DNA from: an uncultured Candidatus Saccharibacteria bacterium
Lineage (GTDB): Bacteria > Patescibacteriota > Doudnabacteria > UBA920
NCBI GenBank assembly: GCA_964556325.1
Contig: CAZKVS010000002.1
Span: forward strand, 13,599 to 77,598
Reading direction: 5' to 3'
Length of the DNA stretch: 64,000 bases
Part shown: piece after piece, positions 3,278 through 63,352 of the stretch
How positions within the stretch are numbered: the stretch's first letter is position 1
How the letters are laid out: every line of letters starts with the position of its first letter
Program-made: the position numbers and the translations under genes
Notes under the pieces: model-generated
Told to the model about the DNA's origin: nothing
The model's database searches: none
The model's input: the letters and a program-made list of their open reading frames with translations, nothing else

Positions 3278-3724
3278 TTATAGTTTACTTAACGCCGCGC
3301 GGAAATCTTCCGGATCCTCAAACTGCAGATAGACTGCTGCAAAGCGGATATAGGCGGCCTTACTCGCTTTCTTAAGCCTCTTCATCACTATCTCGCCAAT
3401 TTCTTTGCTTTCAATTTGACTATTGGCCGATTTTTTTTGAATGTCCTGCTCAATGCCGGAGACTATTTTACGCAGCGTTTCATCTGTATGAGGTAACTTC
3501 CAGAAAGACTGTTTTACTCCTCGCTCCATTTTTTCTCGCGAGTAACTCTCTACATGACCGTCGCGTTTAATCACGCTTAAATCCAAAATTTCTATTTGTT
3601 CGTAGGTAGAGAAGCGAAAACTACAGGCGTCACACTCCCGACGCCGCCTAATAGCGTCGTCTTCCTCTACGGGACGGGAGTCGATGACCTTAGTTTCATC
3701 CTTCAGACAACTCGGACATCGCAT
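3278..3724 (-). CDS. nrdR: Transcriptional repressor NrdR (zinc ribbon plus ATP-cone)
   Basis: N-terminal 'MRCPSC...C..C' zinc ribbon, ATP-cone-like remainder, 148 aa, directly upstream of the RNR gene. Confidence 0.9.
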
Positions 3725-5279: not shown

Positions 5280-6521
5280 CTACGGTAAAAATGACTTAAA
5301 CCAGCGCTTTAATTTTAACATATTGGGGTTTTCCAACAACCGTCTCGCACTTGAGCCAAAACCACTCGAGCTGGCCGAAAAAGCGGAAGACCACAGCACT
5401 AACCCGCACACTGCCGCAAACGACGGATCATCTACTCGGTCAATAATAGTCCGTAAACCCTGCAATTGTCCTCGACTTGCGGGTAACCGTAAAGCGCTCT
5501 TTGCGTATTCTGCTATACCCGGTAAATTCGCCGACCCCCCGACCAATACAACCCCTGCAGGCAGTTTGCCGTCACGGTTAATGAGCTTTAGCTCTTTGTT
5601 CACGTACTCAAAAATTTCTGCAAGACGAGCTTCTATAATTTCCACCACTTCGCGCCGATCCACCTGTTCAGTTTCCGTTTCGTCCAGTTTAGATAAATCT
5701 ATGGTTAAATGTTTATCTATACTTTCCGGATCTGCATGTCCGTAGAGCACCTTCACCCGCTCAGCGGTGTCTATACTTGTACGAAGCCCAATCGCTAAAT
5801 CGTTGGTAATATGTAAACCACCCAACGGCAACACCGCGGTGTGTAATAAAGTATTTTCTTCGTATACTGCAATACTCGTTGTGCCCGCTCCTATGTCTAC
5901 AAGCACGACACCCAATTCTTTTTGCTTGCGGGACAACACTGCAGTCGCAGATGCGAGGGGCCCTACCACTAACTCGTCTACCTGCAAACCAGCCTGGCTG
6001 CACACTCGCTGCATATTCTTTATAAGCGGGCTTGAACCATGCACAATGGTTGTTTCCACTTCCAGCCTCACCCCTGTCATCCCCAATGGATCTTTTATAC
6101 CTTCCTGACCGTCCAATACAAAGGTCTTGGGAATAACGTGCAGTACTTCTCTATTGGAAGGGATAGAGACGGCCTGCGCTGCGTCGATAACTCGAATAAT
6201 ATCTGCCTCTGTCACCTCACCGTCAGCTTTAGACACCGCAATGACCCCGCGAGAAGTTAGACAGGCCAAGTGCGCTCCGCCCACGCTTACTAAAGCACTG
6301 GTCACCGGCACCGCAGTCATGCGCTCCACCTTTTCCAACGCACTCGATATTGCAGTAACTGCTTCATCCAGGTCAACCACTACGCCACGCCGAAGGCCGG
6401 CTGCGGGAACACTCACAGCACCCACCACCGCTGGTTCAACTTCTGGCTCAAGCTTAACCTGAACCACTCGAACAGAGTGGGTACCAATATCAATTCCGGC
6501 GATGTAGTGCTCTTTAGCCAT
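5280..6521 (-). CDS. ftsA: Cell division protein FtsA (actin-like ATPase)
   Basis: 'MAKEHYIAGIDIGTHSVRVV' N-terminus typical of FtsA, immediately upstream of ftsZ. Start chosen at the internal ATG at 6521; the ORF track extends to 6542. Confidence 0.9.
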   Translation of the reverse strand: MAKEHYIAGIDIGTHSVRVVQVKLEPEVEPAVVGAVSVPAAGLRRGVVVDLDEAVTAISSALEKVERMTAVPVTSALVSVGGAHLACLTSRGVIAVSKADGEVTEADIIRVIDAAQAVSIPSNREVLHVIPKTFVLDGQEGIKDPLGMTGVRLEVETTIVHGSSPLIKNMQRVCSQAGLQVDELVVGPLASATAVLSRKQKELGVVLVDIGAGTTSIAVYEENTLLHTAVLPLGGLHITNDLAIGLRTSIDTAERVKVLYGHADPESIDKHLTIDLSKLDETETEQVDRREVVEIIEARLAEIFEYVNKELKLINRDGKLPAGVVLVGGSANLPGIAEYAKSALRLPASRGQLQGLRTIIDRVDDPSFAAVCGLVLWSSAFSASSSGFGSSARRLLENPNMLKLKRWFKSFLP

Positions 6522-11983: not shown

Positions 11984-12113
11984 CTCTTAAGCTCAAACCT
12001 CAACCCCTTAAGTATCTTGCCTAAATTCCCAATACCCAATTCTCAATTTCCAATGAAATGCTAAATTCTGGAAGTTAGAAATTGGAAATTGGTAATTGGA
12101 AATTTATTCTACT

Positions 12114-15547: not shown

Positions 15548-15596
15548 ATCATATGGGTCCTATCTGACCTATCTGACCTATCTGACCTATCTGACC
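15548..15596 (+). repeat. Tandem 9-bp repeat (CCTATCTGA) x about 4.5 upstream of the CapA-like gene
   Basis: Direct reading: gtCCTATCTGACCTATCTGACCTATCTGACCTATCTGAcctataaa, followed by a TATAAA -10-like box. Confidence 0.9.
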
Positions 15597-15623
15597 TATA
15601 AATTTTATTCCCTTATAGCAAAA

Positions 15624-17081: not shown

Positions 17082-17249
17082 AATCTAGCAGAGATACTAT
17101 CATTTGACAAGATGCATACTTCATGGTTAAAATTGCCATTGTAACTCAACTAGTCGTTAGTAAATAGTAATTAGTAATCAGAAAATACTAATTTAATTCT
17201 TTACTGATTGCTTATTACTCCTTACTAAATTACTAATTATTCGTAGTTC

Positions 17250-17285
17250 ATTCGTAGATTCGGATGAATTCGTAGATTCGGATCG
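17250..17285 (+). repeat. Tandem 18-bp repeat ATTCGTAGATTCGGATSR x2 (plus a partial third) immediately upstream of the topA start
   Basis: Direct reading at 17239-17285. The related CATTCGGAT(A) words recur before dnaJ, before the pilin gene and inside the capA insertion. Confidence 0.85.
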
Positions 17286-19678: not shown

Positions 19679-19830
19679 GTATATCACACGCATTGCCCCC
19701 GCGTCCTATTAGTCCTATCTGTCGTATCGGTCCTATCTGTCGTATGCATCCAATTAGTCCTATGTGGGCACCAAACCCACAAAAGAATCAACACACCTAC
19801 CCGCCTCCTACACTCATTCGTCACTAATGA

Positions 19831-29359: not shown

Positions 29360-29382
29360 TTATATAATCCTAATGCTCCGAA

Positions 29383-29438
29383 AAATATCCGAATGTTCCA
29401 AATTTGTTTCATTCGGATACATTCGTAGATTCGGATTA
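29383..29438. repeat. Inverted and direct copies of the CATTCGGAT / CATTCGTAGATTCGGAT motif upstream of dnaJ
   Basis: ATCCGAATG-N15-CATTCGGAT inverted repeat at 29387-29419, followed by CATTCGTAGATTCGGATTA at 29420-29438. The same words occur before topA. Confidence 0.8.
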
Positions 29439-29440
29439 TA

Positions 29441-29749
29441 TTATTCTGTTCTAAACCCAATATGTGGCTGCTGGTCACTGCCTGCTTTTATAGCACCAAA
29501 CTGCTCTTCATACCGCTTAATGTTTTCCTGCAATGCGGCTGCAATGCGCTTCATGTGCTGCGGGGAAAGAATGACCCGAGCTGTGACCGTACCTGTTGGC
29601 GGAAACAAGTTCATGAAATCAATCACAAACTCTTCCGGTGTATGAGCTATTTGAGCCATATTTGCATACACACCTCGGAGCATTTCATCCGTTACTTTTA
29701 CCTGCATTTGTTGCTGACCCTGCTGACCTTGTGGGTTGTTTTCGTTCAT
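29441..29749 (-). CDS. DUF3467-like small protein inserted between dnaK and dnaJ
   Basis: About 100 aa with a 'YANMAQIAHTPEEFVIDF' core resembling DUF3467. Assigned from memory of the family only. Confidence 0.45.
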   Translation of the reverse strand: MNENNPQGQQGQQQMQVKVTDEMLRGVYANMAQIAHTPEEFVIDFMNLFPPTGTVTARVILSPQHMKRIAAALQENIKRYEEQFGAIKAGSDQQPHIGFRTE

Positions 29750-33321: not shown

Positions 33322-33352
33322 ACGTCATGTCCAAAATTAATTCTGGTCAATT

Positions 33353-34114
33353 TTATTTAATTATGGTCAATAATATTATTGCTGCGCCTCCCCCACCCAA
33401 CAGCTTTGCAATATACTCCATCAAGCCCATATTCTTCTCGTATTTCATGGACTTTGGGCCAAGCAAGCCTACTACACCCTGTTTACCATCTGGTAATTGT
33501 ACGCCTGAGACTATCATAGAGTAGTCGCTCTTTTCGGACAGCTTTACTTCTTTTCCTATCACTGCTTGCGCACTGCCATTGGCGTAGTCTCGCATCATGT
33601 TTTCCGCGTGTTCGTCTATGTTGTCAAAAAAACGAGCAATCTCTCGAGCATCTTCCGGTGGTAAGGCAGGATTATCTAAAATATTCGCCAAACCCATAGT
33701 AGAAGTATCGCCGGGGAACAAAGCAAAGCTGGCCTGTTCAGAACTGTCTGCCAAGAGCTTGGCAAGCCTTCGGCCCACCTCGGCATTTACCACCTGCAAC
33801 TTTACTACTTCCTTCCGTAAGCGATCTTGCTCTTTCATAGAGAGCTTTACTCGCTCCATAAGCTCGCTCACAAAATACCGAAAGCCCATGTCGGTTGGTA
33901 CCCGACCGGCTGAGGTATGCGGCTGCATAATGTAGCCCTCTTTTTCCAGCACTTGCATCTCGTTACGAATAGTAGCACCGGACAAGTCAAAATAGTCTTT
34001 GTCGACTAAATCTTTGCTCGCCACCGGCACACCAGTATCGCAGTTTTCTTTTACTATTGCGGCCAATATTCTGGCTTGGCGCTGAGTTATTTCTGGGTAG
34101 TTTGCCATACTCAT
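33353..34114 (-). CDS. hrcA: Heat-inducible transcription repressor HrcA (short form)
   Basis: N-terminal wHTH 'ITQRQARILAAIVKENCDTGVPVASKDL' typical of HrcA. Gene order hrcA-grpE-dnaK-dnaJ. CIRCE element immediately upstream. Confidence 0.8.
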   Translation of the reverse strand: MSMANYPEITQRQARILAAIVKENCDTGVPVASKDLVDKDYFDLSGATIRNEMQVLEKEGYIMQPHTSAGRVPTDMGFRYFVSELMERVKLSMKEQDRLRKEVVKLQVVNAEVGRRLAKLLADSSEQASFALFPGDTSTMGLANILDNPALPPEDAREIARFFDNIDEHAENMMRDYANGSAQAVIGKEVKLSEKSDYSMIVSGVQLPDGKQGVVGLLGPKSMKYEKNMGLMEYIAKLLGGGGAAIILLTIIK

Positions 34115-34130
34115 ACACCATATAAAATAA

Positions 34131-34157
34131 TTAGCACTCTGTCAAGTAGAGTGCTAA
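34131..34157 (-). promoter_or_regulatory. CIRCE operator (TTAGCACTC-N9-GAGTGCTAA) upstream of hrcA
   Basis: Exact match to the CIRCE consensus: TTAGCACTCTGTCAAGTAGAGTGCTAA. Confidence 0.85.
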
Positions 34158-34831: not shown

Positions 34832-34920
34832 ATTTCCAATTCCTAATTTCTAATGTCTAATGACACACAAGAAATTAGTACTCTTATCATTTGGTATTAG
34901 AAATTAGATATTAGATATTT

Positions 34921-42781: not shown

Positions 42782-44941
42782 ATGGCACAAATGGCCGAAT
42801 TAAAGCAACAAATTACTCACTTCCCCCACCAGCCTGGATGCTACCTGTTTCGGGACGCCACGGGCTTAGTTTTGTACGTGGGCAAAGCCAAAGACTTGCG
42901 GAAACGAGTCAGCCAGTACTTTGGACAGGACAAACGACCGCAGCTACCGTTCTTAATCGAGGACGCCTCAGACATAGACTATATAGTAGCCCGTACTGAG
43001 CTTGAAGCACTGTTTCTAGAAAACACGCTCATTAAAAAACACAACCCGAAGTACAACATAAAGCTTAAGGACGATAAAAACTACGCGTTCATTGCCATAG
43101 ACTACTCCACTCAAATTCCTCAAATTGGGTATGTACGGAAAATTACTGACGCATCCGACTTTACCCCGTTTGTAAACCCATCCGCTTCTTGGGGCAGTGG
43201 CAAGCATGAGCGTAAGACGCTCAAGTGGAAAGGGAAAAGTGGAAAGGGAAAAGTGGATTCCAAATCTTCAGGTCTACAACCTACAACCTACAACCTACAA
43301 CCTAGTTCTTACTTTGGTCCGTATTCATCAGTTAAAAAAATTCGGGAGACGCTCGACTTCGTACGAAAAATATTTCCCTACTGTGCTAACACGGAAGTAA
43401 GTGGTCGGCCTTGTTTTTACTATCACTTACACCGCTGTCCCGGCGTATGCGTGGGTGCGGTTTCTTTGGAGGAATACCAAAAAAGTTTGGCTCGCATTAA
43501 ACTCTTTCTCAACGGCAAAACAACAGAGATTAAAAAAGAGCTTAAAACGAGCATGGAGTATGCAGCGGAAACCAAACGATTTGAGTTGGCCGCGCGACTG
43601 CGCGACCAGCTGCGCGCACTTGAGTTACTAGACGAGCGACAAATTGCCCAGTTCCCCACCAGAGTAGACTACGACTTTATTTCCCTCGCTACGCAAAACC
43701 ATTTGCGGTGCGTCAACCTGTTTAAAGTGCGCGGCGGCAAACTGACCGACAAAGAAAACTTTATATACACCGCTCCTACGGATTTAAAACTAGAAGCTAG
43801 CAGCTGGAAGCTAGAAGCTATTATTCAGACCTTTGCGGAAACCTACTACGCAGAAACCACAGATTTACCCAGCGCAGTTTTTACCCAACACCCACTCACA
43901 GATACCCCATTAATAGATGAACTCCTCAAACATCGGAAAGGTAAAAGGGTTACCCTCTCTGTTCCCCGCCGTGGGAAGGCACACCAACTTATTAAACTTG
44001 GCCAGGTAAATGCTGAAGAATGTTTACGCAAAACCCTCGCCACAGACGCGACTGATTCTGATAAAATCCAAGATTCCCTAGAGAAGCTACAGAAGCTTTT
44101 GAAGCTTGCCCAGCTGCCCCGACGGATTGAGTGCTATGACATGTCTAACACCCAAGGCACTAACCCTGTAGGCAGCATGGTTGTTTTTATAGATGGCAAA
44201 CCCGCTAAAGGTGAATACCGTAAATTTAAGATTCGCTCCAAAGACACCCCCGACGACTTTGCTATGATGCGTGAGACGTTATCCAGACGGCTCCGCCGTC
44301 TGAACCCTCCCCCTCTTGAGGGGGAGATGGAGGGGGTCATAGTGAAAGATAAAAATGGTAAAGACATCAAAGAACCAAATCATTCTATGACCTCCCCTAA
44401 CCCCTCCTCAAGAGGAGGGGAACAAATGCCATGGCCGCGACCCGACTTAATAGTAATAGACGGAGGTAAAGGCCAGCTCTCTGCTGCGCTCGAAGCGCAG
44501 GAACAAGTCGAAGGTCATCAAGTCGAAAGTCAAAAGTCGAAAATCCGAGATGATAACCCAGATGGCACCCTGCCCCCTAACCCCTTAGCCCTTAGCCCTA
44601 TCCCAATGATTGGATTAGCAAAAAGGATCGAAGAAATATTTCTCCCCCACAATCCCGAACCAATTGTGCTGAGTCATGACCACCCTTCTCTCCAACTTCT
44701 CCAACGTTTACGTGACGAGGCACATCGCTTTGGCATAACCTTCCACCGCAGCCTCCGTAGTAAGCAAGCCACCAAATCCGCACTCGACACTATTCCGGGC
44801 ATTGGCCCTAAAACAAAAAAACTCCTAAAACAGAAGTTTGGCACAGTAAGTGCGATTAAGAAAATCGCACTAGAAGAAATAGAAAAGTTAGAAGAATTAG
44901 TAGGCAAAACTAAAGCCGGTATTATAAAAAAGAATTTGTAG
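42782..44941 (+). CDS. uvrC: Excinuclease ABC subunit C, expanded (723 aa) by several in-frame repeat-derived insertions
   Basis: GIY-YIG N-terminus ('GCYLFRDATGLVLYVGKAKDLRKRVSQYF'), UvrBC-interaction region, RNase H-like endonuclease ('IDGGKGQL', 'GLAKRIEEIF'), C-terminal HhH. ATG at 42782 preferred over the TTG at 42767. Confidence 0.9.
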   Translation: MAQMAELKQQITHFPHQPGCYLFRDATGLVLYVGKAKDLRKRVSQYFGQDKRPQLPFLIEDASDIDYIVARTELEALFLENTLIKKHNPKYNIKLKDDKNYAFIAIDYSTQIPQIGYVRKITDASDFTPFVNPSASWGSGKHERKTLKWKGKSGKGKVDSKSSGLQPTTYNLQPSSYFGPYSSVKKIRETLDFVRKIFPYCANTEVSGRPCFYYHLHRCPGVCVGAVSLEEYQKSLARIKLFLNGKTTEIKKELKTSMEYAAETKRFELAARLRDQLRALELLDERQIAQFPTRVDYDFISLATQNHLRCVNLFKVRGGKLTDKENFIYTAPTDLKLEASSWKLEAIIQTFAETYYAETTDLPSAVFTQHPLTDTPLIDELLKHRKGKRVTLSVPRRGKAHQLIKLGQVNAEECLRKTLATDATDSDKIQDSLEKLQKLLKLAQLPRRIECYDMSNTQGTNPVGSMVVFIDGKPAKGEYRKFKIRSKDTPDDFAMMRETLSRRLRRLNPPPLEGEMEGVIVKDKNGKDIKEPNHSMTSPNPSSRGGEQMPWPRPDLIVIDGGKGQLSAALEAQEQVEGHQVESQKSKIRDDNPDGTLPPNPLALSPIPMIGLAKRIEEIFLPHNPEPIVLSHDHPSLQLLQRLRDEAHRFGITFHRSLRSKQATKSALDTIPGIGPKTKKLLKQKFGTVSAIKKIALEEIEKLEELVGKTKAGIIKKNL

Positions 44942-53002: not shown

Positions 53003-53980
53003 ATGAACAAAGAAACTATAGTAGGCGGCATACGAGCCACTAGCAAGCTCCATATTGGTAACTACCTGGGCGCACTTAAGCCATTTGTTGAGCTCTCCAA
53101 AGATAGAGAGAAGACGAGCTTCTTTTTCATTGCTGACCTGCACGCCCTCACCACTCCTTTCGAACCACACGAGCTAAGACAGAACTCAGTAGAAGTAGCA
53201 GCCGAATATATTGCAGCTGGTTTGGATGTAAATAACGCTGTTTTTTTTCTGCAAAATCACGTCCACGAACATGCCGAACTTGCCTGGATATTCAACTGCA
53301 TACTACCAATTGCCGAACTAGAACGGATGACTCAGTACAAAGACAAATCAAACCAACATAAAGACAATATCAATGCAGGTCTACTCACCTATCCTTGTTT
53401 AATGGCTGCAGATATTCTTGTATATAAAGCTCAAGGAGTCGCAGTAGGACACGATCAAGTACAGCATGTGGAACTATCAAGAATAGTCGCAAGAAAGTTT
53501 AATAACCGATTTGCGAATGTGTTCCCAGAGCCAAAAACGTACTCCTCCGATCCGCTGCGTATTATGAGCATCAAAGATCCGAGCAAGAAGATGAGCAAGA
53601 CGGGAGATGTTCCATTGTATATAGACGATGAGCCAAAAATAATTCATGAAAAGATAAAAAAAGCAGTCACCGCAACGGATGGTGCGGGAAAGTCAGCAGG
53701 GGCAGAAAATCTTTTAGGCTTACTTGCACACTTTGGCAGTCATGCCAATATTGAACACTTCAATGACATGCAGCAAACGGGCACGCTTAAGTTTAGCGAG
53801 CTGAAAGAAGCCTTGGCCACAGACATAGCTGAGCACTTTGCAGAGTTTCGAGAAAAGAAAAAAGAGCTTCTTGCTCGACCGGAATACCTAGCCGAAGTGT
53901 TGGGGGAAGGTGCCCGCAAAGCTCGAGAAGTTGCCCACGAAACGCTACGCGAAGTAAAAGAAAAAATTGGACTGCTATAG
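53003..53980 (+). CDS. trpS: Tryptophanyl-tRNA synthetase
   Basis: 'HIGNYLGAL' HIGH-type motif, 'KMSKT' KMSKS-type motif, 325 aa class Ic size. Confidence 0.9.
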   Translation: MNKETIVGGIRATSKLHIGNYLGALKPFVELSKDREKTSFFFIADLHALTTPFEPHELRQNSVEVAAEYIAAGLDVNNAVFFLQNHVHEHAELAWIFNCILPIAELERMTQYKDKSNQHKDNINAGLLTYPCLMAADILVYKAQGVAVGHDQVQHVELSRIVARKFNNRFANVFPEPKTYSSDPLRIMSIKDPSKKMSKTGDVPLYIDDEPKIIHEKIKKAVTATDGAGKSAGAENLLGLLAHFGSHANIEHFNDMQQTGTLKFSELKEALATDIAEHFAEFREKKKELLARPEYLAEVLGEGARKAREVAHETLREVKEKIGLL

Positions 53981-55283: not shown

Positions 55284-56183
55284 TTATAATATTCGCTCAT
55301 CACCGGGTATTAGCACGGGTAAAGCAGGACGCTCTTGCAGCACTTTTTTATCCGCTGCATTTAACGGTACAATCATATCCGCCGTACCACCATTGGCGTA
55401 AAACACATCCATCGATGTGACACCAATTAAACCGGACGAGTGACTATAGTAAATAGTCCCATCCTGCGCCCTGAGCCAACTCCCCCACGGGTGTTCTTCA
55501 GTTGCGCTGGAAATAATATACCCGGACGAAACACGGAAACTAGATACATCTATTTTTTGTACGTGTGATAACTTGTATCCTAGACCGGTAAAGGCTACCA
55601 GGGTACTAAATGGAATTTTAACTGCATCTTTAACCATGAGGAAATATATAGTACTTCCCTCTTGCACAAGCGTGCCGGTAGCATACCCGGATGCGACTGG
55701 CGGGGTATAGAGCAAGCCTTCGGTAGACGCAGTAGACTGTGCAGGATTTTGAGTTTGTTGCGTAGGTGGAGGAGGAGTAACAACTATAGGACCGCTGGGC
55801 GTACTGAATGGCGTACCCGACAAAGATACATTGTTCCCTTCAGTATCTGCGGAGTTCACCGTGAACGCGTACTTAGTTTCGGGCTTAAGTCCGGTTAAGG
55901 TAATCTTGTGGCTGGTTACTAAGTTATCGTCTTGCAAGTTCTGGACCTTGCTCTCTCCGGTACCTATGTAAGAAATAAACGTATCAGAAGGAATGTCCGT
56001 ATTCCATGTAATTACGGCTGTAGTACTGGTGACAGTACCAACGCTCAGCTGGGCAATAGTTGGGTCTGCCCATACTTGTCTGGGAGCAAGGCTTGCCAGG
56101 CAAAACACCAAAAAAAGCAGGATAGGTGTGACACCGCCCGCTTTTTTCAAACCCACGCGTAACCGTTGGAATGTTAATTGCAT
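55284..56183 (-). CDS. Secreted FN3-like protein (paralog B of 54486..55274)
   Basis: Same architecture and a C-terminal domain ('EEHPWGSWLRAQDGTIYYSHSSGLIGVTSMDVF...VPLNAAD') about 60% identical to paralog A. Tandem duplication. Confidence 0.6.
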   Translation of the reverse strand: MQLTFQRLRVGLKKAGGVTPILLFLVFCLASLAPRQVWADPTIAQLSVGTVTSTTAVITWNTDIPSDTFISYIGTGESKVQNLQDDNLVTSHKITLTGLKPETKYAFTVNSADTEGNNVSLSGTPFSTPSGPIVVTPPPPTQQTQNPAQSTASTEGLLYTPPVASGYATGTLVQEGSTIYFLMVKDAVKIPFSTLVAFTGLGYKLSHVQKIDVSSFRVSSGYIISSATEEHPWGSWLRAQDGTIYYSHSSGLIGVTSMDVFYANGGTADMIVPLNAADKKVLQERPALPVLIPGDERIL

Positions 56184-59534: not shown

Positions 59535-59885
59535 CTAAAGACCAGGTCCGCCATCAGAACGGGCGGCAAGAACTTTCTTTACCGATGCGTTATTTGGGGC
59601 GAGATAGGTAGCCACCTCGCTAGCCTCTCCACTGCACTGATCGCAGTAGAGAAAAGTTCCGGTTTTGTCCGTTTCAAACTCCTTTTTGAAATGATGATCA
59701 GCCGGCAGCACCAGCTGAGGACCATCGGAAAGTTTCAAAATGACTTGTCCGGTCGCCGACGTAGACTCGTAAGTCCACGTAGTTTTCGACGAGACGTAGC
59801 TGCGCGCGCTGAGGGAGGCAGCGCGGGCATTACATCCAGCCACGAACAACAAACAAAAGCAAAATAGTGGCAATAGCTTGCGCAT
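59535..59885 (-). CDS. Hypothetical lipoprotein
   Basis: 'LLFVAGCNA' lipobox after the signal peptide. 116 aa. Confidence 0.5.
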   Translation of the reverse strand: MRKLLPLFCFCLLFVAGCNARAASLSARSYVSSKTTWTYESTSATGQVILKLSDGPQLVLPADHHFKKEFETDKTGTFLYCDQCSGEASEVATYLAPNNASVKKVLAARSDGGPGL

Positions 59886-60022
59886 GATAAGTGTCCCCCG
59901 TAAGGTTGGAAAGGTTTGGTTGATGTTATATCCCAGCTGGAACCAGGATGCAATCTCGGCGAAATCCGAGAATGTAAATTATAACATATATTTTAAGTTA
60001 TGTCCATGCTCAAAAACATGGA

Positions 60023-60051
60023 CAAATGGGGTGGGTTCTGGTAAAATAGTA
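60023..60051 (+). promoter_or_regulatory. Promoter TGGACA-N17-(TG)gTAAAAT for rpsF, followed by a CCGGAAA/TTTCCGG leader hairpin
   Basis: TGGACAaatggggtgggttcTGGTAAAAT. Leader hairpin at about 60072-60092. Shine-Dalgarno GAAAGGAAA before the ATG. Confidence 0.45.
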
Positions 60052-60176
60052 ACAACTTGCCGGAAATAAGCGGTTTCCGGTGAACAACTAAATATTTAAC
60101 CATATTTTCTACTTTGATTTGCGGGTGCGCTTTAGCCATCCAAGAAAAGATAGGTAGAAATGAAAGGAAAGCTTTC

Positions 60177-60716
60177 ATGCCGCGATATGAGTTGTGCTAC
60201 ATCCTCGCCGCCGGAGTCAGCGATGACCAGGTCCCCGAGGTAGCCACCCAAATTCAGAAGTTTATCACCGACTTCGGTGGTACCGATATCCAAGAAGAAC
60301 TCTTGGGTAAAAAGAAACTTGCCTACCCTATTAAGAAAACCCGTAACGGTTTTTATGTGGTAGAAACCTTTACCATGCCTGCGAATAAAATAAACGACTT
60401 GGAAGCAAAGGTTCGCTCCCAAACCGCAACGGTTATTCGTCACCTTATCATAAACGTAGACGAACACTTGGTTCGCAGCGAAAAAGACAAAGTTGCTCAG
60501 AGCAAACTGACCAAGCAAGCACCTGAAGGTGAGCAAGACCAACCGCAGGCCCCACGTCCTGCCCCAGCCGCTGCGCCGGTTGCGCGACCTGAACCAGTTC
60601 CAACACCTAAAGTGGAACCAGTAAAAGATGAAGTAAAAGAAATTGCCAAAGAGCTTTCCACCGAAGAGTTGGACAAGCAGATTGAAGCTGCGTTGTCCGA
60701 TGATCTTATTAAGTAA
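60177..60716 (+). CDS. rpsF: 30S ribosomal protein S6 with an Ala/Pro/Glu-rich C-terminal extension
   Basis: 'MPRYELCYILAAGVSDDQVPEV...KKLAYPIKKTRNGFYVV' S6 fold. Confidence 0.85.
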   Translation: MPRYELCYILAAGVSDDQVPEVATQIQKFITDFGGTDIQEELLGKKKLAYPIKKTRNGFYVVETFTMPANKINDLEAKVRSQTATVIRHLIINVDEHLVRSEKDKVAQSKLTKQAPEGEQDQPQAPRPAPAAAPVARPEPVPTPKVEPVKDEVKEIAKELSTEELDKQIEAALSDDLIK

Positions 60717-60790
60717 TTGATCAAAATTAAGTAAAATTGACCATAATTGTCCATAATTTAAATGGCAATTTTGAACAATTTTGAACAATT
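60717..60790 (+). repeat. AT-rich intergenic repeat R1 (TTGAYCAWAATT word family) upstream of ssb
   Basis: TTGATCAAAATT...TTGACCATAATTGTCCATAATTT...CAATTTTGAACAATT. Related to R2 and R3. Confidence 0.8.
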
Positions 60791-60806
60791 AATTAAATTA
60801 AAATCT

Positions 60807-61280
60807 ATGGATTTAAACAAAGTCATGATTATTGGCCGGCTCACGCGAGACCCGGAACTTCGCTCTACACCAAACGGCGCGAGTGTGTGTCAGCTTTCTC
60901 TTGCTACCAATTACGTATACACCAACCCACAAACCAGTCAAAAGGTAGAACAGGTTGAATATCACAACGTAGTACTCTGGCGAAAGTTGGCGGAGATTGC
61001 TAGCCAATACTTGAAAAAAGGCCGACGTGTATACATTGAAGGCCGCTTACAAACCCGAAGCTGGGATGGCCAGGACGGTAAGAAAAACTACCGCACGGAA
61101 ATTATTGCCGACAACATGATTATGTTAGACGGCGGTACTCCAGGTGCCACGAGCGGAAGCGCACCGTTTGCTAAACCAGCCGGCCCCGCACAAGAAGGCG
61201 GCGACCAGTCCATTGTGGACGAAGAGTTCCCTACCATCCAAGCCGAAGAAAACATTAAAGTAGAAGATATACCTTTTTAA
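60807..61280 (+). CDS. ssb: Single-stranded DNA-binding protein
   Basis: OB-fold 'MIIGRLTRDPELRSTPNGASVCQLSLATN...HNVVLWRKLAE' and a C-terminal '...DIPF' tail. Confidence 0.85.
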   Translation: MDLNKVMIIGRLTRDPELRSTPNGASVCQLSLATNYVYTNPQTSQKVEQVEYHNVVLWRKLAEIASQYLKKGRRVYIEGRLQTRSWDGQDGKKNYRTEIIADNMIMLDGGTPGATSGSAPFAKPAGPAQEGGDQSIVDEEFPTIQAEENIKVEDIPF

Positions 61281-61366
61281 TTGACCAAAATTAAATAAAA
61301 TTGTACACAATTGTCCATAATTTAGAATGGCAATTTTGAACAATTATGGTCAATTCTGATCAATTT
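61281..61366 (+). repeat. AT-rich 86-bp repeat R2 with 12-bp terminal inverted repeats (TTGACCAAAATT ... AATTATGGTCAA) upstream of rpsR
   Basis: Nearly identical to R3 over about 85 nt. Confidence 0.85.
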
Positions 61367-61377
61367 TAAATTATTTT

Positions 61378-61617
61378 ATGAGACCTCAACAACGCGACAG
61401 AGACATCCCAATGGTAAAGAAGAATTGCTACTTCTGCACCAACAAAATTACCACGGTAGACTACAAAGACGGCCAGACCCTTCGCCGCTTTATGTCCCCC
61501 CATGCCAAAATCATGTCTAACAAAAAGACTGGCAGCTGCCCAAAGCACCAGCGCATGATTACTTTGGCACTCAAGCGAGCTCGCCATATGGCATTGTTGC
61601 CATTCGTAGCCGCCTAG
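61378..61617 (+). CDS. rpsR: 30S ribosomal protein S18
   Basis: 'CYFCTNKITTVDYKD...LRRFMSPHAKI...ALKRARHMALLPF' S18 signature. Confidence 0.85.
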   Translation: MRPQQRDRDIPMVKKNCYFCTNKITTVDYKDGQTLRRFMSPHAKIMSNKKTGSCPKHQRMITLALKRARHMALLPFVAA

Positions 61618-61622
61618 GCTAA

Positions 61623-61707
61623 TTGACCAAAATTAAATAAAATTGTACACAATTGTCCATAATTTAGAATGGCAATTTTGAACAATTATGGTCAATTCTG
61701 ATCAATT
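61623..61707 (+). repeat. AT-rich repeat R3 (copy of R2) upstream of efp
   Basis: Identical to R2 from TTGACCAAAATT through ...CAATTCTGATCAATT. Confidence 0.85.
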
Positions 61708-61721
61708 ATGTAAATTGATTT

Positions 61722-62276
61722 ATGGATTTAAACGACATGAAAGTAGGGACCATTATCCTGTACAACGGCGAGCCGTTTCAGGTTATATGGTCCAACCGCA
61801 TGCGCACCGCGCAAAGAAAGCCGGTCATGCAAACCAAGCTCCGCAACGTGATTACCGGTAAGGTAATGGAGTATAGCTTCAAGTTTGGCGAGCGAATAGA
61901 TGAAGCAGACGTGTCCCGCGAAAAGGCGAACTTCTTGTACGCAGACGATGACGGCACACACTTCATGAGCAACGAGACTTTTGAGCCAATTGACTTCAAC
62001 AAAGAAGTTACCGCTGAACAGGAACCATATTTGAAAGAAGGCTTAGAAGTTTCCGTGCTCCGCTTTAACAGCCAACCTGTATCCATTGAACTACCTATTA
62101 AAGTAGACTACAAAGTTGCCGATGCCCCTCCGGGCATTCGTGGTGACTCAGGCGGCGGCGTTACTAAAAAAGTCACTCTGGACACTGGTCTAGTTATAGA
62201 CGCTCCCCTGTTCATAAAAGAAGGTGAAATAGTTCGCGTAGACACCCGCACAGGTGAATATGTAGAACGCGCGTAG
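61722..62276 (+). CDS. efp: Elongation factor P
   Basis: Three-domain EF-P ('KVGTIILYNGEPFQV', 'KPVMQTKLRNVITGKV', C-terminal OB domains). 184 aa. Confidence 0.9.
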   Translation: MDLNDMKVGTIILYNGEPFQVIWSNRMRTAQRKPVMQTKLRNVITGKVMEYSFKFGERIDEADVSREKANFLYADDDGTHFMSNETFEPIDFNKEVTAEQEPYLKEGLEVSVLRFNSQPVSIELPIKVDYKVADAPPGIRGDSGGGVTKKVTLDTGLVIDAPLFIKEGEIVRVDTRTGEYVERA

Positions 62277-62302
62277 AATAGCTTACAGGTTTTAGCTACT
62301 AG

Positions 62303-62334
62303 CTTTCAGCCAATACAAAAAGACTGCCACTCGG
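62303..62334 (+). terminator. Terminator after efp (AGACTGCC-actc-GGCAGTCT plus TTTTCTC)
   Basis: 8-bp hairpin plus T-rich tail. Confidence 0.75.
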
Positions 62335-62352
62335 CAGTCTTTTCTCTTCTCC

Positions 62353-62382
62353 CTCCCCTTTCTAAGGGGAGGCTAGGTGGGG
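62353..62382 (+). repeat. Intergenic copy of the GC-rich palindromic element (CTCCCCTTTCTAAGGGGAG plus GCTAGGTGGGG)
   Basis: Same architecture as the in-frame copies at 16507, 17961, 44307 and 42517. Confidence 0.8.
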
Positions 62383-62385
62383 TGA

Positions 62386-62452
62386 AGTTGTCCAAAACAA
62401 AAAGACGTGTCTTGCTGATACTGTGGGTATGAATCCACAACATCAGCAAGCT
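62386..62452. terminator. Long imperfect inverted repeat (AAGACGTGTCTTGCTGAT ... ATCAGCAAGCTCACGTCTT) flanked by A-runs and T-runs
   Basis: About 18-bp arms and a 22-nt loop between convergent efp and the 62489 gene. Confidence 0.55.
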
Positions 62453-62488
62453 CACGTCTTTTTGATTATCGAGAAGGCATCGCAGCTT

Positions 62489-63352
62489 TCACTGCGGGTA
62501 ACCGGGACCCGTGCCGTTGTAAAACTCCATACAACGGTCACAGGTAAACGAAAAACCGGTATCCAAGTCTTTCAAAACCACGCTCGAGCGATATAGATTG
62601 CTCGGGCCGACTGAAACTCGGTTCAAATAATCGGAGACATAGAGTTCCCCGTCAGACACGGTGGAATTTTCTTGTACGACATCGTTACCTCCGTAAAAAA
62701 ACAACGCGCTGTATCTGTGGCGTAATGTTTCATCTCCCACAACCTTCAGGGTCGCCACCGGAAAACCCACGGGATGAATGCCGCCCTGACCCGACTTGAT
62801 ACGCGGGCCGGTTTCGCGCTGAGGCGCGGCCGCATACTCATGGTAAAACTTGCTGCCGGCAAAACCAATTGGTATAAGTTGGGCATCGTATAACGTGACT
62901 AAAGCTTGCCATTCACCGAGCGAATAGCTTTCTGGAAGAGGCCCGCGGAACATCTCTTGATTAACCCGCTTAAAGATGCCACTTGGAAAGAACTTAAGCG
63001 TCACCTGTTTAATTGCCCCGCCATAAACGAATACGATGGTTGCCCACCGCACGCTTGGATATATGTCCGTGGCATAAGCTGAAAGCGTCATCGTCTGACC
63101 TGCCGGCGTATAACCCGCAGTGTGAACGATCAACTTGTCCATCAGCGGTACGGTTGAATACCCCTGCTGGACCATTGCCAGCGCTTGCTCTTTGGCCGTA
63201 ACCATCAAGGCCTGCGCTTTAGTAACAACTTCGATTTCAGGTTGTTGCCGTTCCTGCCCAAGCGTATTTGAACACCAAGCCATTAACGCGATAGCCAAAG
63301 CTAACAAAAAACATACAAGTGCGCCCCTACGCGCCGCTCTTTTGGTCAACAT
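62489..63352 (-). CDS. Hypothetical secreted protein
   Basis: Signal peptide ('ALVCFLLALAIALMAWCSN'). 287 aa. No recognisable domain. Confidence 0.5.
   Translation of the reverse strand: MLTKRAARRGALVCFLLALAIALMAWCSNTLGQERQQPEIEVVTKAQALMVTAKEQALAMVQQGYSTVPLMDKLIVHTAGYTPAGQTMTLSAYATDIYPSVRWATIVFVYGGAIKQVTLKFFPSGIFKRVNQEMFRGPLPESYSLGEWQALVTLYDAQLIPIGFAGSKFYHEYAAAPQRETGPRIKSGQGGIHPVGFPVATLKVVGDETLRHRYSALFFYGGNDVVQENSTVSDGELYVSDYLNRVSVGPSNLYRSSVVLKDLDTGFSFTCDRCMEFYNGTGPGYPQ

Follow-up and report, generated by a model that had tools for sequence, protein, structure and literature searches.

Repetitive extragenic palindromic (REP) sequences, bacterial interspersed mosaic elements (BIMEs) and REPINs (paired REP elements) of Enterobacteria and Pseudomonas are short, extragenic, transcribed imperfect palindromes found at the 3′ ends of genes or between cistrons. 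REP units are single palindromes of 20–40 nt with a conserved head that is recognised by the RAYT transposase; inverted pairs form hairpins of ∼100 nt, several families occur per genome, and the elements can affect mRNA stability. Correia elements (nemis) of Neisseria and enterobacterial repetitive intergenic consensus (ERIC) sequences are miniature inverted-repeat transposable elements (MITEs) that are transcribed into hairpins and processed by RNase III or RNase E. Correia elements are of fixed length, with 26-bp terminal inverted repeats, an IHF site and a TA duplication. Rickettsia palindromic elements (RPEs) are selfish elements of 100–150 bp with conserved sequence that lie between genes and in-frame within them. 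Genomes of the Candidate Phyla Radiation (CPR; Patescibacteria) are usually described as streamlined and repeat-poor. The tandem repeats of Borgs are perfect direct repeats that form in situ, are not paired into palindromes and are not shared between loci or species (PMC9879509). Here we describe R, a palindromic repeat in 64 kb of Candidatus Doudnabacteria (CPR) DNA (contig CAZKVS010000002.1; the whole stretch is referred to as the window), where copies occupy the three spacers of the gene cluster rpsF-ssb-rpsR-efp. With modest confidence, we read R as a non-autonomous dispersed palindromic repeat, similar to MITEs, REPINs or RPEs, that has been inserted, replaced and homogenised among the gene spacers of Doudnabacteria. 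R is one family among many word palindromes and not an operator specific to translation genes. We found no description of it in the literature on its words and on intergenic palindromes of CPR bacteria, and the repeat is probably undescribed.

R copies in the window

Each full R copy is an imperfect palindrome made of about four forward 10-bp words, a centre of 12–13 bp and about four inverted words. Left-arm words have the form TTGAYCAWAA or TTAARTAAAA, the centre reads TTTAGAATGGC, and the tetramer AATT is repeated with a 10-bp period (offsets 0, 10, 20, 30 and 40, then 53, 63, 73 and 83). The arms of ∼40 bp are roughly 80% complementary (78–81% over 36 nt), and the number of words differs between copies. 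In R1, for example, the words TTGATCAAAA, TTAAGTAAAA, TTGACCATAA and TTGTCCATAA precede the centre TTTAAATGGCAA, which is followed by TTTTGAACAA twice. The initial annotation had described a 12-mer in direct and inverted orientation that formed terminal inverted repeats. Both orientations are indeed present, but the unit is better described as a phased 10-bp word, and the perfect inverted 12-mer (61342–61353 and 61684–61695) turned out to be subterminal; the true termini, AATTGACCAAAATT and AATTCTGATCAATT, match at 11 of 14 positions. With a length of 88 nt, no open reading frame (ORF) and inverted ends, R has the size and structure of a MITE.

By direct comparison, R2 and R3 are 100% identical over exactly 88 nt, and the match ends sharply on both sides, in line with the identity over ∼85 nt that was noted initially. 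R1 is a diverged copy, as had also been stated, with 64% ungapped and 82% gapped (74/90) identity to the other two; the mean column identity of the three-way alignment is 86%. Counting the 12-mer TTGACCAWAATT with at most one mismatch gave 11 matches in the window, compared to 1.0 expected and a maximum of 6 in 100 dinucleotide shuffles. Nine of these lie inside R1–R3, and the other two (33339–33370, minus strand) reveal a fourth, half copy in the hrcA-grpE spacer that the initial annotation did not list. Its words are TTGACCATAA TTAAATAAAA TTGACCAGAA TT, the first of which encode the C-terminus of HrcA and its stop codon (LLTIIK*). An orthologous array is present in another species (L021; such labels denote loci or contigs of relatives), where the same HrcA ending also lies inside the array.

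The coordinates confirm the reported placement before ssb, rpsR and efp (Table 1): the copies lie immediately ahead of these genes and begin 0–5 nt past the preceding stop, and the first three bases of R2 are the TAA stop codon of ssb. Read directly from the sequence, the R core contains TGA or TAA stops in all three frames. As RNA, the copies are predicted to fold with −20 to −25 kcal/mol and z-scores of −3.4 to −4.4.

Table 1. Coordinates of the R copies, genes and signals in the window
Feature	Position	Strand	Description
R1	60714–60801	+	rpsF-ssb spacer, diverged copy; RNA fold −20.1 kcal/mol, z = −4.3
R2	61278–61365	+	ssb-rpsR spacer; RNA fold −21.4 kcal/mol, z = −3.4; antisense −29.6 kcal/mol
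R3	61620–61707	+	rpsR-efp spacer; RNA fold −24.8 kcal/mol, z = −4.4
Fourth copy, half	33322–33385	−	hrcA-grpE spacer, left-arm array only; flanking genes by Pfam
rpsF	60177–60716	+	ribosomal protein S6; first gene of the cluster; Pfam of orthologues
ssb	60807–61280	+	PF00436
rpsR	61378–61617	+	ribosomal protein S18; PF01084
efp	61722–62276	+	elongation factor P; by homology
Sigma-70-like promoter match	60019–60047	+	TGGACA-17-TAAAAT with TG; upstream of rpsF; only sense-strand match of the cluster
TAAATT hexamer	60794–60799	+	7 nt before the ssb ATG
TAAATT hexamer	61367–61372	+	5 nt before the rpsR ATG
TAAATT hexamer	61711–61716	+	5 nt before the efp ATG
Intrinsic-terminator-like hairpin	62316–62349	+	after efp; GC-rich stem and U-tract, AAGACTGCC-ACTC-GGCAGTCTT TTCTCTT
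uvrC	42782–44941		in-frame word arrays at 43219–43306, 43790–43820, 44300–44420 and 44503–44550, and short hairpin-forming words

Turnover of the same spacers in related strains

Homologues of the efp product place the window in Candidatus Doudnabacteria. The order rpsF-ssb-rpsR-efp is retained in the contigs of relatives, and the content of the three spacers varies by strain. L001, a near-identical strain with an identical ssb, carries R1, R2 and R3, with R2 and R3 differing at four positions. L008 (86–88% coding identity) has R in the rpsR-efp spacer and an unrelated palindrome before rpsR. The presence of the element in these independent assemblies led us to reject an assembly artefact. Overall, sister strains with 86–95% coding identity contain unrelated word palindromes in the same three spacers. 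L002, L004 and L005 (88–90% coding identity) have three unrelated palindromes, and all three spacers of L045, which is 93–95% identical to L002, are unlike those of L002; R is absent from both L002 and L045 at the spacer where L001 and L008 have it. L009 and L010 encode the same elongation factor P (EF-P) protein and yet have unrelated rpsR-efp spacers, along with a one-word (9-bp) indel in rpsF-ssb. Between strains, the palindromes are thus either near-identical or unrelated. The initial annotation had also proposed a dedicated operator for translation genes, but the word is not kept in the spacers of sister strains (L002, L004, L005, L045, L047, L048 and L009–L011).

In the outgroups L072 and L073 (EF-P ∼75% identical), the rpsF-ssb and ssb-rpsR spacers are only 11, 13, 18 and 31 nt long and hairpin-free, and a GC-rich hairpin lies between rpsR and efp. 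Because of these short outgroup spacers, the palindromes look like insertions. In the clade of the window, 23 of 24 spacers from 10 strains fold into stems of 17–44 pairs; the exception is in L048, where a spacer of 44 nt forms 8 pairs. A stem typically begins 3.5 nt past the stop and ends 14 nt short of the ATG (medians), and these distances together approximate the size of a short outgroup spacer.

Within a strain, adjacent spacers often share one family, which differs per strain: AAAGTT words in two of the three spacers of L045, GTAGTCAG words in two spacers of L047 (EF-P 90% identical) and TTAACGAG words in all three of L048 (EF-P 88% identical). Sharing between neighbouring spacers was also found at other loci, in L021 and L032. 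Furthermore, related TCGAA-word palindromes occupy rpsR-efp in L045 and rpsF-ssb in L002. In the window, R2 and R3 share a C, at 61308 and 61650 respectively, as opposed to the A of L001 and L008; since this C is private to the window strain, a new variant appears to have been copied between the two spacers by gene conversion. R3 of the window and its counterpart in L008 differ at only 4 of 104 positions (3.8%; 96% identity), compared to 30 of 240 in rpsR and 76 of 555 in efp, with 31–37% divergence at third codon positions (Fisher p = 0.004). The similarity has a sharp boundary on the rpsR side and decays gradually into efp.

The L001 contig ends inside R1 and the L008 contig inside the palindrome before rpsR, both in independent short-read assemblies. 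Palindromic repeats probably fragment metagenome-assembled genomes (MAGs) of the Doudnabacteria lineage. In the sister strains L002 (4866–6691) and L005 (4866–6676), a gene pair encoding HTH_17 and a serine recombinase (Resolvase/Recombinase) lies just upstream of ychF; this pair is absent at the corresponding place in the window.

The R family and other word arrays

Loci of the R family were ascertained by exact match to the core 23-mer TTGAYCAWAATTAARTAAAATTG, and the gene calls there are crude ORF calls. The 23-mer was found in 33 stretches of GTDB species genomes, 30 of which belong to ∼20 CPR MAGs labelled Doudnabacteria, 'Saccharibacteria' (third-party annotation, TPA) or Patescibacteria, with up to four exact matches per MAG. 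It was also present in 23 JGI/ENA metagenome contigs. Scanning viral contigs with the R core gave no match, nor did a metagenome scan with the pattern of centre plus right arm. The core commonly begins 0–15 nt past a same-strand stop codon and often provides that stop. Indeed, a same-strand ORF of at least 100 amino acids ends between −18 and +19 nt of the motif at 27 of 35 loci (binomial p = 0.0009), and at seven genome loci the upstream ORF ends ...IDQN* within the array. What comes after the left array differs by locus and can be an inverted array, a GC-rich terminator, a canonical promoter or immediately an ATG. The genes next to the family are unrelated (hrcA-grpE, ABC transporter genes, rplT, a gatA-like gene and genes for membrane proteins), which further speaks against an operator dedicated to translation genes. 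A subtype of 95–105 nt, with CTGCAGT as its loop and a T-rich right arm that is conserved, is 89–93% identical at unlinked loci of one MAG (L013 and L023) and also in L027 and L032. In L071 (∼267–430, minus-strand orientation), a GC-rich segment of ∼75 nt sits within the loop of an R-type element as a nested insertion.

R is not the only array of this kind. We counted 33 tandem word arrays with a period of 6 or more and 2.5 or more copies in the window, as opposed to ∼1 in composition-preserving shuffles, and other intergenic palindromes are built from different words (e.g. 12020–12100, 17150–17245, 29360–29445 and 34832–34920). The initial annotation considered such repeats unusual for a ribosomal operon; this holds, but the phenomenon is genome-wide in the lineage rather than specific to the operon. 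The in-frame arrays in uvrC fall where the protein alignment shows four hypervariable inserts (linkers) in close relatives (681–750 amino acids), which UvrC homologues of ∼600 amino acids lack. Nine-mers of the CCTATCTGA type are repeated 4.6 and 6.8 times, at 15559–15599 and 19703–19763, and ATTCGTAGATTCGGAT occurs at two spacers 12 kb apart (17250–17285 and 29421–29436) and in L027. In L033, a GC-rich noncoding segment of ∼126 nt is present twice, 2.6 kb apart (3299–3425 and 5993–6117; 91% identity), and could represent a structured RNA or a further repeat family.

R resembles REP, BIME and REPIN elements in being an extragenic palindrome in transcribed spacers, with inverted doublets that form hairpins. 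It differs from REP units in its arms, which are arrays of phased 10-bp words of variable number, and in that no RAYT was found among the ORFs of the window; in contrast to REPINs, the spacer families are swapped between strains of 93–95% identity, much faster than described for REPINs. Like Correia and ERIC elements, R is MITE-sized with inverted ends, lies near genes and would form long hairpins when co-transcribed, but unlike Correia elements it has no detectable duplication, a variable length and a phased-word architecture. Similarities to RPEs are the reduced genome, the in-frame arrays in uvrC and the arrays that provide C-terminal residues and stops; however, the uvrC arrays belong to other word families and are not R itself. 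With Borg repeats (PMC9879509) and the heptamers of cyanobacterial short tandemly repeated repetitive (STRR) sequences, the lineage shares pervasive, fast-evolving short tandem repeats, both intergenic and in-frame. The combination of phased 10-bp word arms, variable length and cassette-like exchange of families between strains sets R apart from all the systems compared.

Competing explanations and significance

The initial annotation had offered a MITE as one interpretation. In its favor, R is short and non-coding, has inverted ends, four copies in the window and dispersed homologues, is polymorphic for presence and absence, and sits where outgroups have a short spacer; among the classical hallmarks of a MITE, a target-site duplication and, among the ORFs of the window, a transposase were not found, and the word number varies between copies. 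Several observations weigh against a dispersed mobile repeat. Flanking target-site duplications, which the annotation had proposed to look for, were found neither at R2 and R3 (TTTT|R2|TTAA and AGGC|R3|ATGT) nor at the copies in L013/L023, L047 and L048, although a TA duplication of 2 bp would be difficult to rule out in flanks so rich in A and T. A Pfam scan of the 50 ORFs in the window detected no transposase, RAYT or reverse transcriptase, and no Y1_Tnp domain. Arrays at orthologous sites in different species are at least as well conserved as the coding DNA beside them (the hrcA-grpE array of the window/L021, L028/L037, L019/L044 and L025/L031, the last with 62/62 versus 79%), a comparison that is biased because the loci were found by exact core match; this could mean purifying selection on a function and not selfish persistence. 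The sense-strand orientation bias requires the extra assumption of selection for stop codons, and the ORF calls in the loci of relatives are crude. Finally, a homologous-recombination tract reaching ∼130 nt into efp may be partly responsible for how little R3 differs between the window and L008, as the gradual decay of similarity there would allow.

If R is a dispersed repeat nonetheless, short operon spacers would have received palindrome insertions; these may then have spread locally through copy-and-replace recombination, or through a switch of template from one hairpin to its neighbour, and homologous recombination between strains would move copies as well. We infer this copying mechanism from sequence comparison. 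Copies would be tolerated beside stop codons because their left end brings stops in all three frames and the segment before the ATG remains intact. Once transcribed as part of the rpsF-ssb-rpsR(-efp) mRNA, a copy would form an AU-rich hairpin of 25–35 bp, the likeliest effect of which would be on mRNA processing, stability or insulation of cistrons, as a by-product or secondary co-option and not as the raison d'être of the repeat. Such a secondary role of the RNA hairpin, including translational coupling, is possible.

A rival explanation, which we judge unlikely, is that the hairpin itself is selected and its sequence interchangeable, either to couple translation or to serve processing and end protection by RNase III or RNase J; intercistronic hairpins are known as processing and end-protection sites in early mRNA of phage T7. 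The stem would join the upstream stop to the downstream start and leave an AU-rich leader of ∼14 nt free in a genome poor in Shine–Dalgarno (SD) sites. The stems kept in 23 of the 24 clade spacers despite the turnover of sequence fit this idea, as do the fold z-scores of −3.4 to −5.4 for the spacers tested. An SD-like sequence is present before rpsF and missing before ssb, rpsR and efp, and only ∼25% of 336 ORFs (window plus 60 loci of relatives) have an SD-like 4-mer upstream. RNase J is encoded in the window, as is DprA (Pfam scan of its ORFs). A scan of 59800–62600 found no sense-strand sigma-70 site in R1–R3, only antisense matches, and no terminator-like site within them, while genuine GC-rich terminators are present elsewhere in the window; the R copies are therefore probably co-transcribed with the operon. 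However, the operon does not need the hairpin, since the short outgroup spacers lack it. Folding is even between sense and antisense strands across 94 co-directional spacers (47 versus 46), and R2 folds better in antisense (−29.6 versus −21.4 kcal/mol), which leaves no G–U signature of selection at the RNA level. Furthermore, many family members consist of the left array alone or of the array plus a GC-rich terminator, and word palindromes also occur in a divergent spacer (29360–29461) and in-frame inside uvrC.

We regard as improbable that R is a promoter or operator cassette, in which phased TTGACC words and A-tracts act as a −35 or UP element and TAAATT as a leaderless −10 box, or in which the words form an operator array for one regulator. 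The words do resemble the −35 consensus and the core contains TAAAAT; TTGACA-18-TAAAAT can be read in L014, L020, L041 and L051, a canonical promoter follows immediately after the array in L025/L031 and L038, and the core is conserved across species. TAAATT occurs only three times in 60700–61730, each time shortly before an ATG; it may serve leaderless mRNAs as a −10 box or be left over from the segment before the ATG. Moreover, −10-like hexamers peak 12–14 nt upstream of start codons among the 336 ORFs (e.g. TATACT-6-ATG at 53003 and TAAAAT-7-ATG at 56183). On the other hand, none of the R copies in the window contains a sense-strand −35/−10 pair of the sigma-70 type. TTGACC and TAAAAT are 9 nt apart in the window copies and 19 nt apart with an extra upstream word, as at many loci, and the TGGTCA-TAAATT spacing is 16 nt in R3 and 14 nt in R2. 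In sister strains, the spacers in question are filled by unrelated sequences, and the copies precede unrelated genes, also lie in convergent spacers where terminators follow (L019, L026 and L035), and in most cases start at the stop codon of the preceding gene or overlap it. Leaderless internal promoters at ssb, rpsR and efp, though with no consistent −35 element, are possible given the TAAATT before each ATG and the −10-like peak. Together with the scarcity of SD sites, this peak suggests that leaderless mRNAs may be frequent in the Doudnabacteria lineage.

Even less probable, in our view, is a site of curved DNA, in which eight or nine AnTn tracts (AAAATT, AATTTT) spaced at 10 bp would bend the 85-bp segment for a nucleoid-associated protein, gyrase or the C-terminal domain of the RNA polymerase alpha subunit; BIMEs, for instance, bind IHF and gyrase. 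AATT is strictly spaced at 10 bp in both arms, the phasing and AATT are more conserved across loci than the four variable bases of each word, and the symmetry between sense and antisense strands is compatible with a feature at the DNA level. Yet bending is not general, since other families in the same spacers have periods of 7 or 9 bp and GC-rich words. The phase also slips by 2–3 bp at the centre of R, and the sense-strand orientation bias would be unexpected for a purely structural DNA element.

Least probable is R as a mutational by-product of slippage and fold-back synthesis in a repair-poor genome, formed in situ with neither movement nor function: tandem arrays are ∼30-fold enriched in the window, word number is polymorphic between paralogous and orthologous copies and arrays arise within uvrC linkers, but in-situ generation cannot repeatedly yield the same words, whereas one and the same 23-mer, and entire elements of 95 nt, are found again at unlinked loci and in ∼20 MAGs, R2 equals R3 between non-homologous flanks and strains diverge in an all-or-none manner, so that this explanation in its pure form is already largely contradicted.

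Other candidates were rejected. Tandem interspaced guide RNA (TIGR) arrays of CPR bacteria, which consist of tandem tigRNA units with box C/D motifs beside a tas gene, do not fit in architecture: the R unit measures 10 bp, and the window showed no protein with a Nop domain. R1–R3 lack a terminator-like site with GC-rich stem and U-tract and are not intrinsic terminators. We also dismissed integron attC sites (no GTTRRRY core; core housekeeping genes as flanks), DNA uptake sequences (density far too low), Rho rut sites with YC dimers phased at 10 nt (suited to the left arm of R, but other families that occupy the same spacers are G-rich) and operators of the LexA, PhoB or LacI type (wrong spacing or symmetry).

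A search of the whole window against Rfam at gathering threshold returned only tRNAs and no family for R; with an E-value threshold, matches within 59800–62500 were limited to sub-threshold ones to microRNA hairpin models. The best of these, likewise below threshold, fell on a near-perfect hairpin of ∼35 pairs at 62392–62470, between the convergent efp and the ORF at 62489–63352, which is probably a bidirectional terminator. Upstream of hrcA (33353–34114, minus strand), a perfect CIRCE operator (TTAGCACTC-N9-GAGTGCTAA, 34131–34157) heads an hrcA-grpE-(GNAT)-dnaK cluster, with dnaJ further along the same strand.

We give rather little weight to the idea that Doudnabacteria replace hairpin for hairpin by copying, or that stop-start-bridging hairpins are selected to couple translation in SD-poor, partly leaderless operons, or both; if true, each of these would amount to a way of evolving spacers or controlling expression that has not been described before in CPR bacteria. 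What the comparison of strains does reveal is that interchangeable palindromes of ∼90 nt fill almost all spacers of a core translation operon in the lineage. They turn over faster than synonymous sites, homogenise between neighbours, supply stop codons and have relatives in coding regions. If confirmed on closed genomes, R would represent a new type of dispersed repeat, built from phased words, beside REP, MITE and RPE elements. It would also account for the frequent contig breaks in these MAGs, make it possible to follow recombination and the population dynamics of strains in uncultured bacteria by means of a natural marker, and offer a testable system for the effects of long intercistronic hairpins on expression in bacteria that are sparing with Shine–Dalgarno sites.

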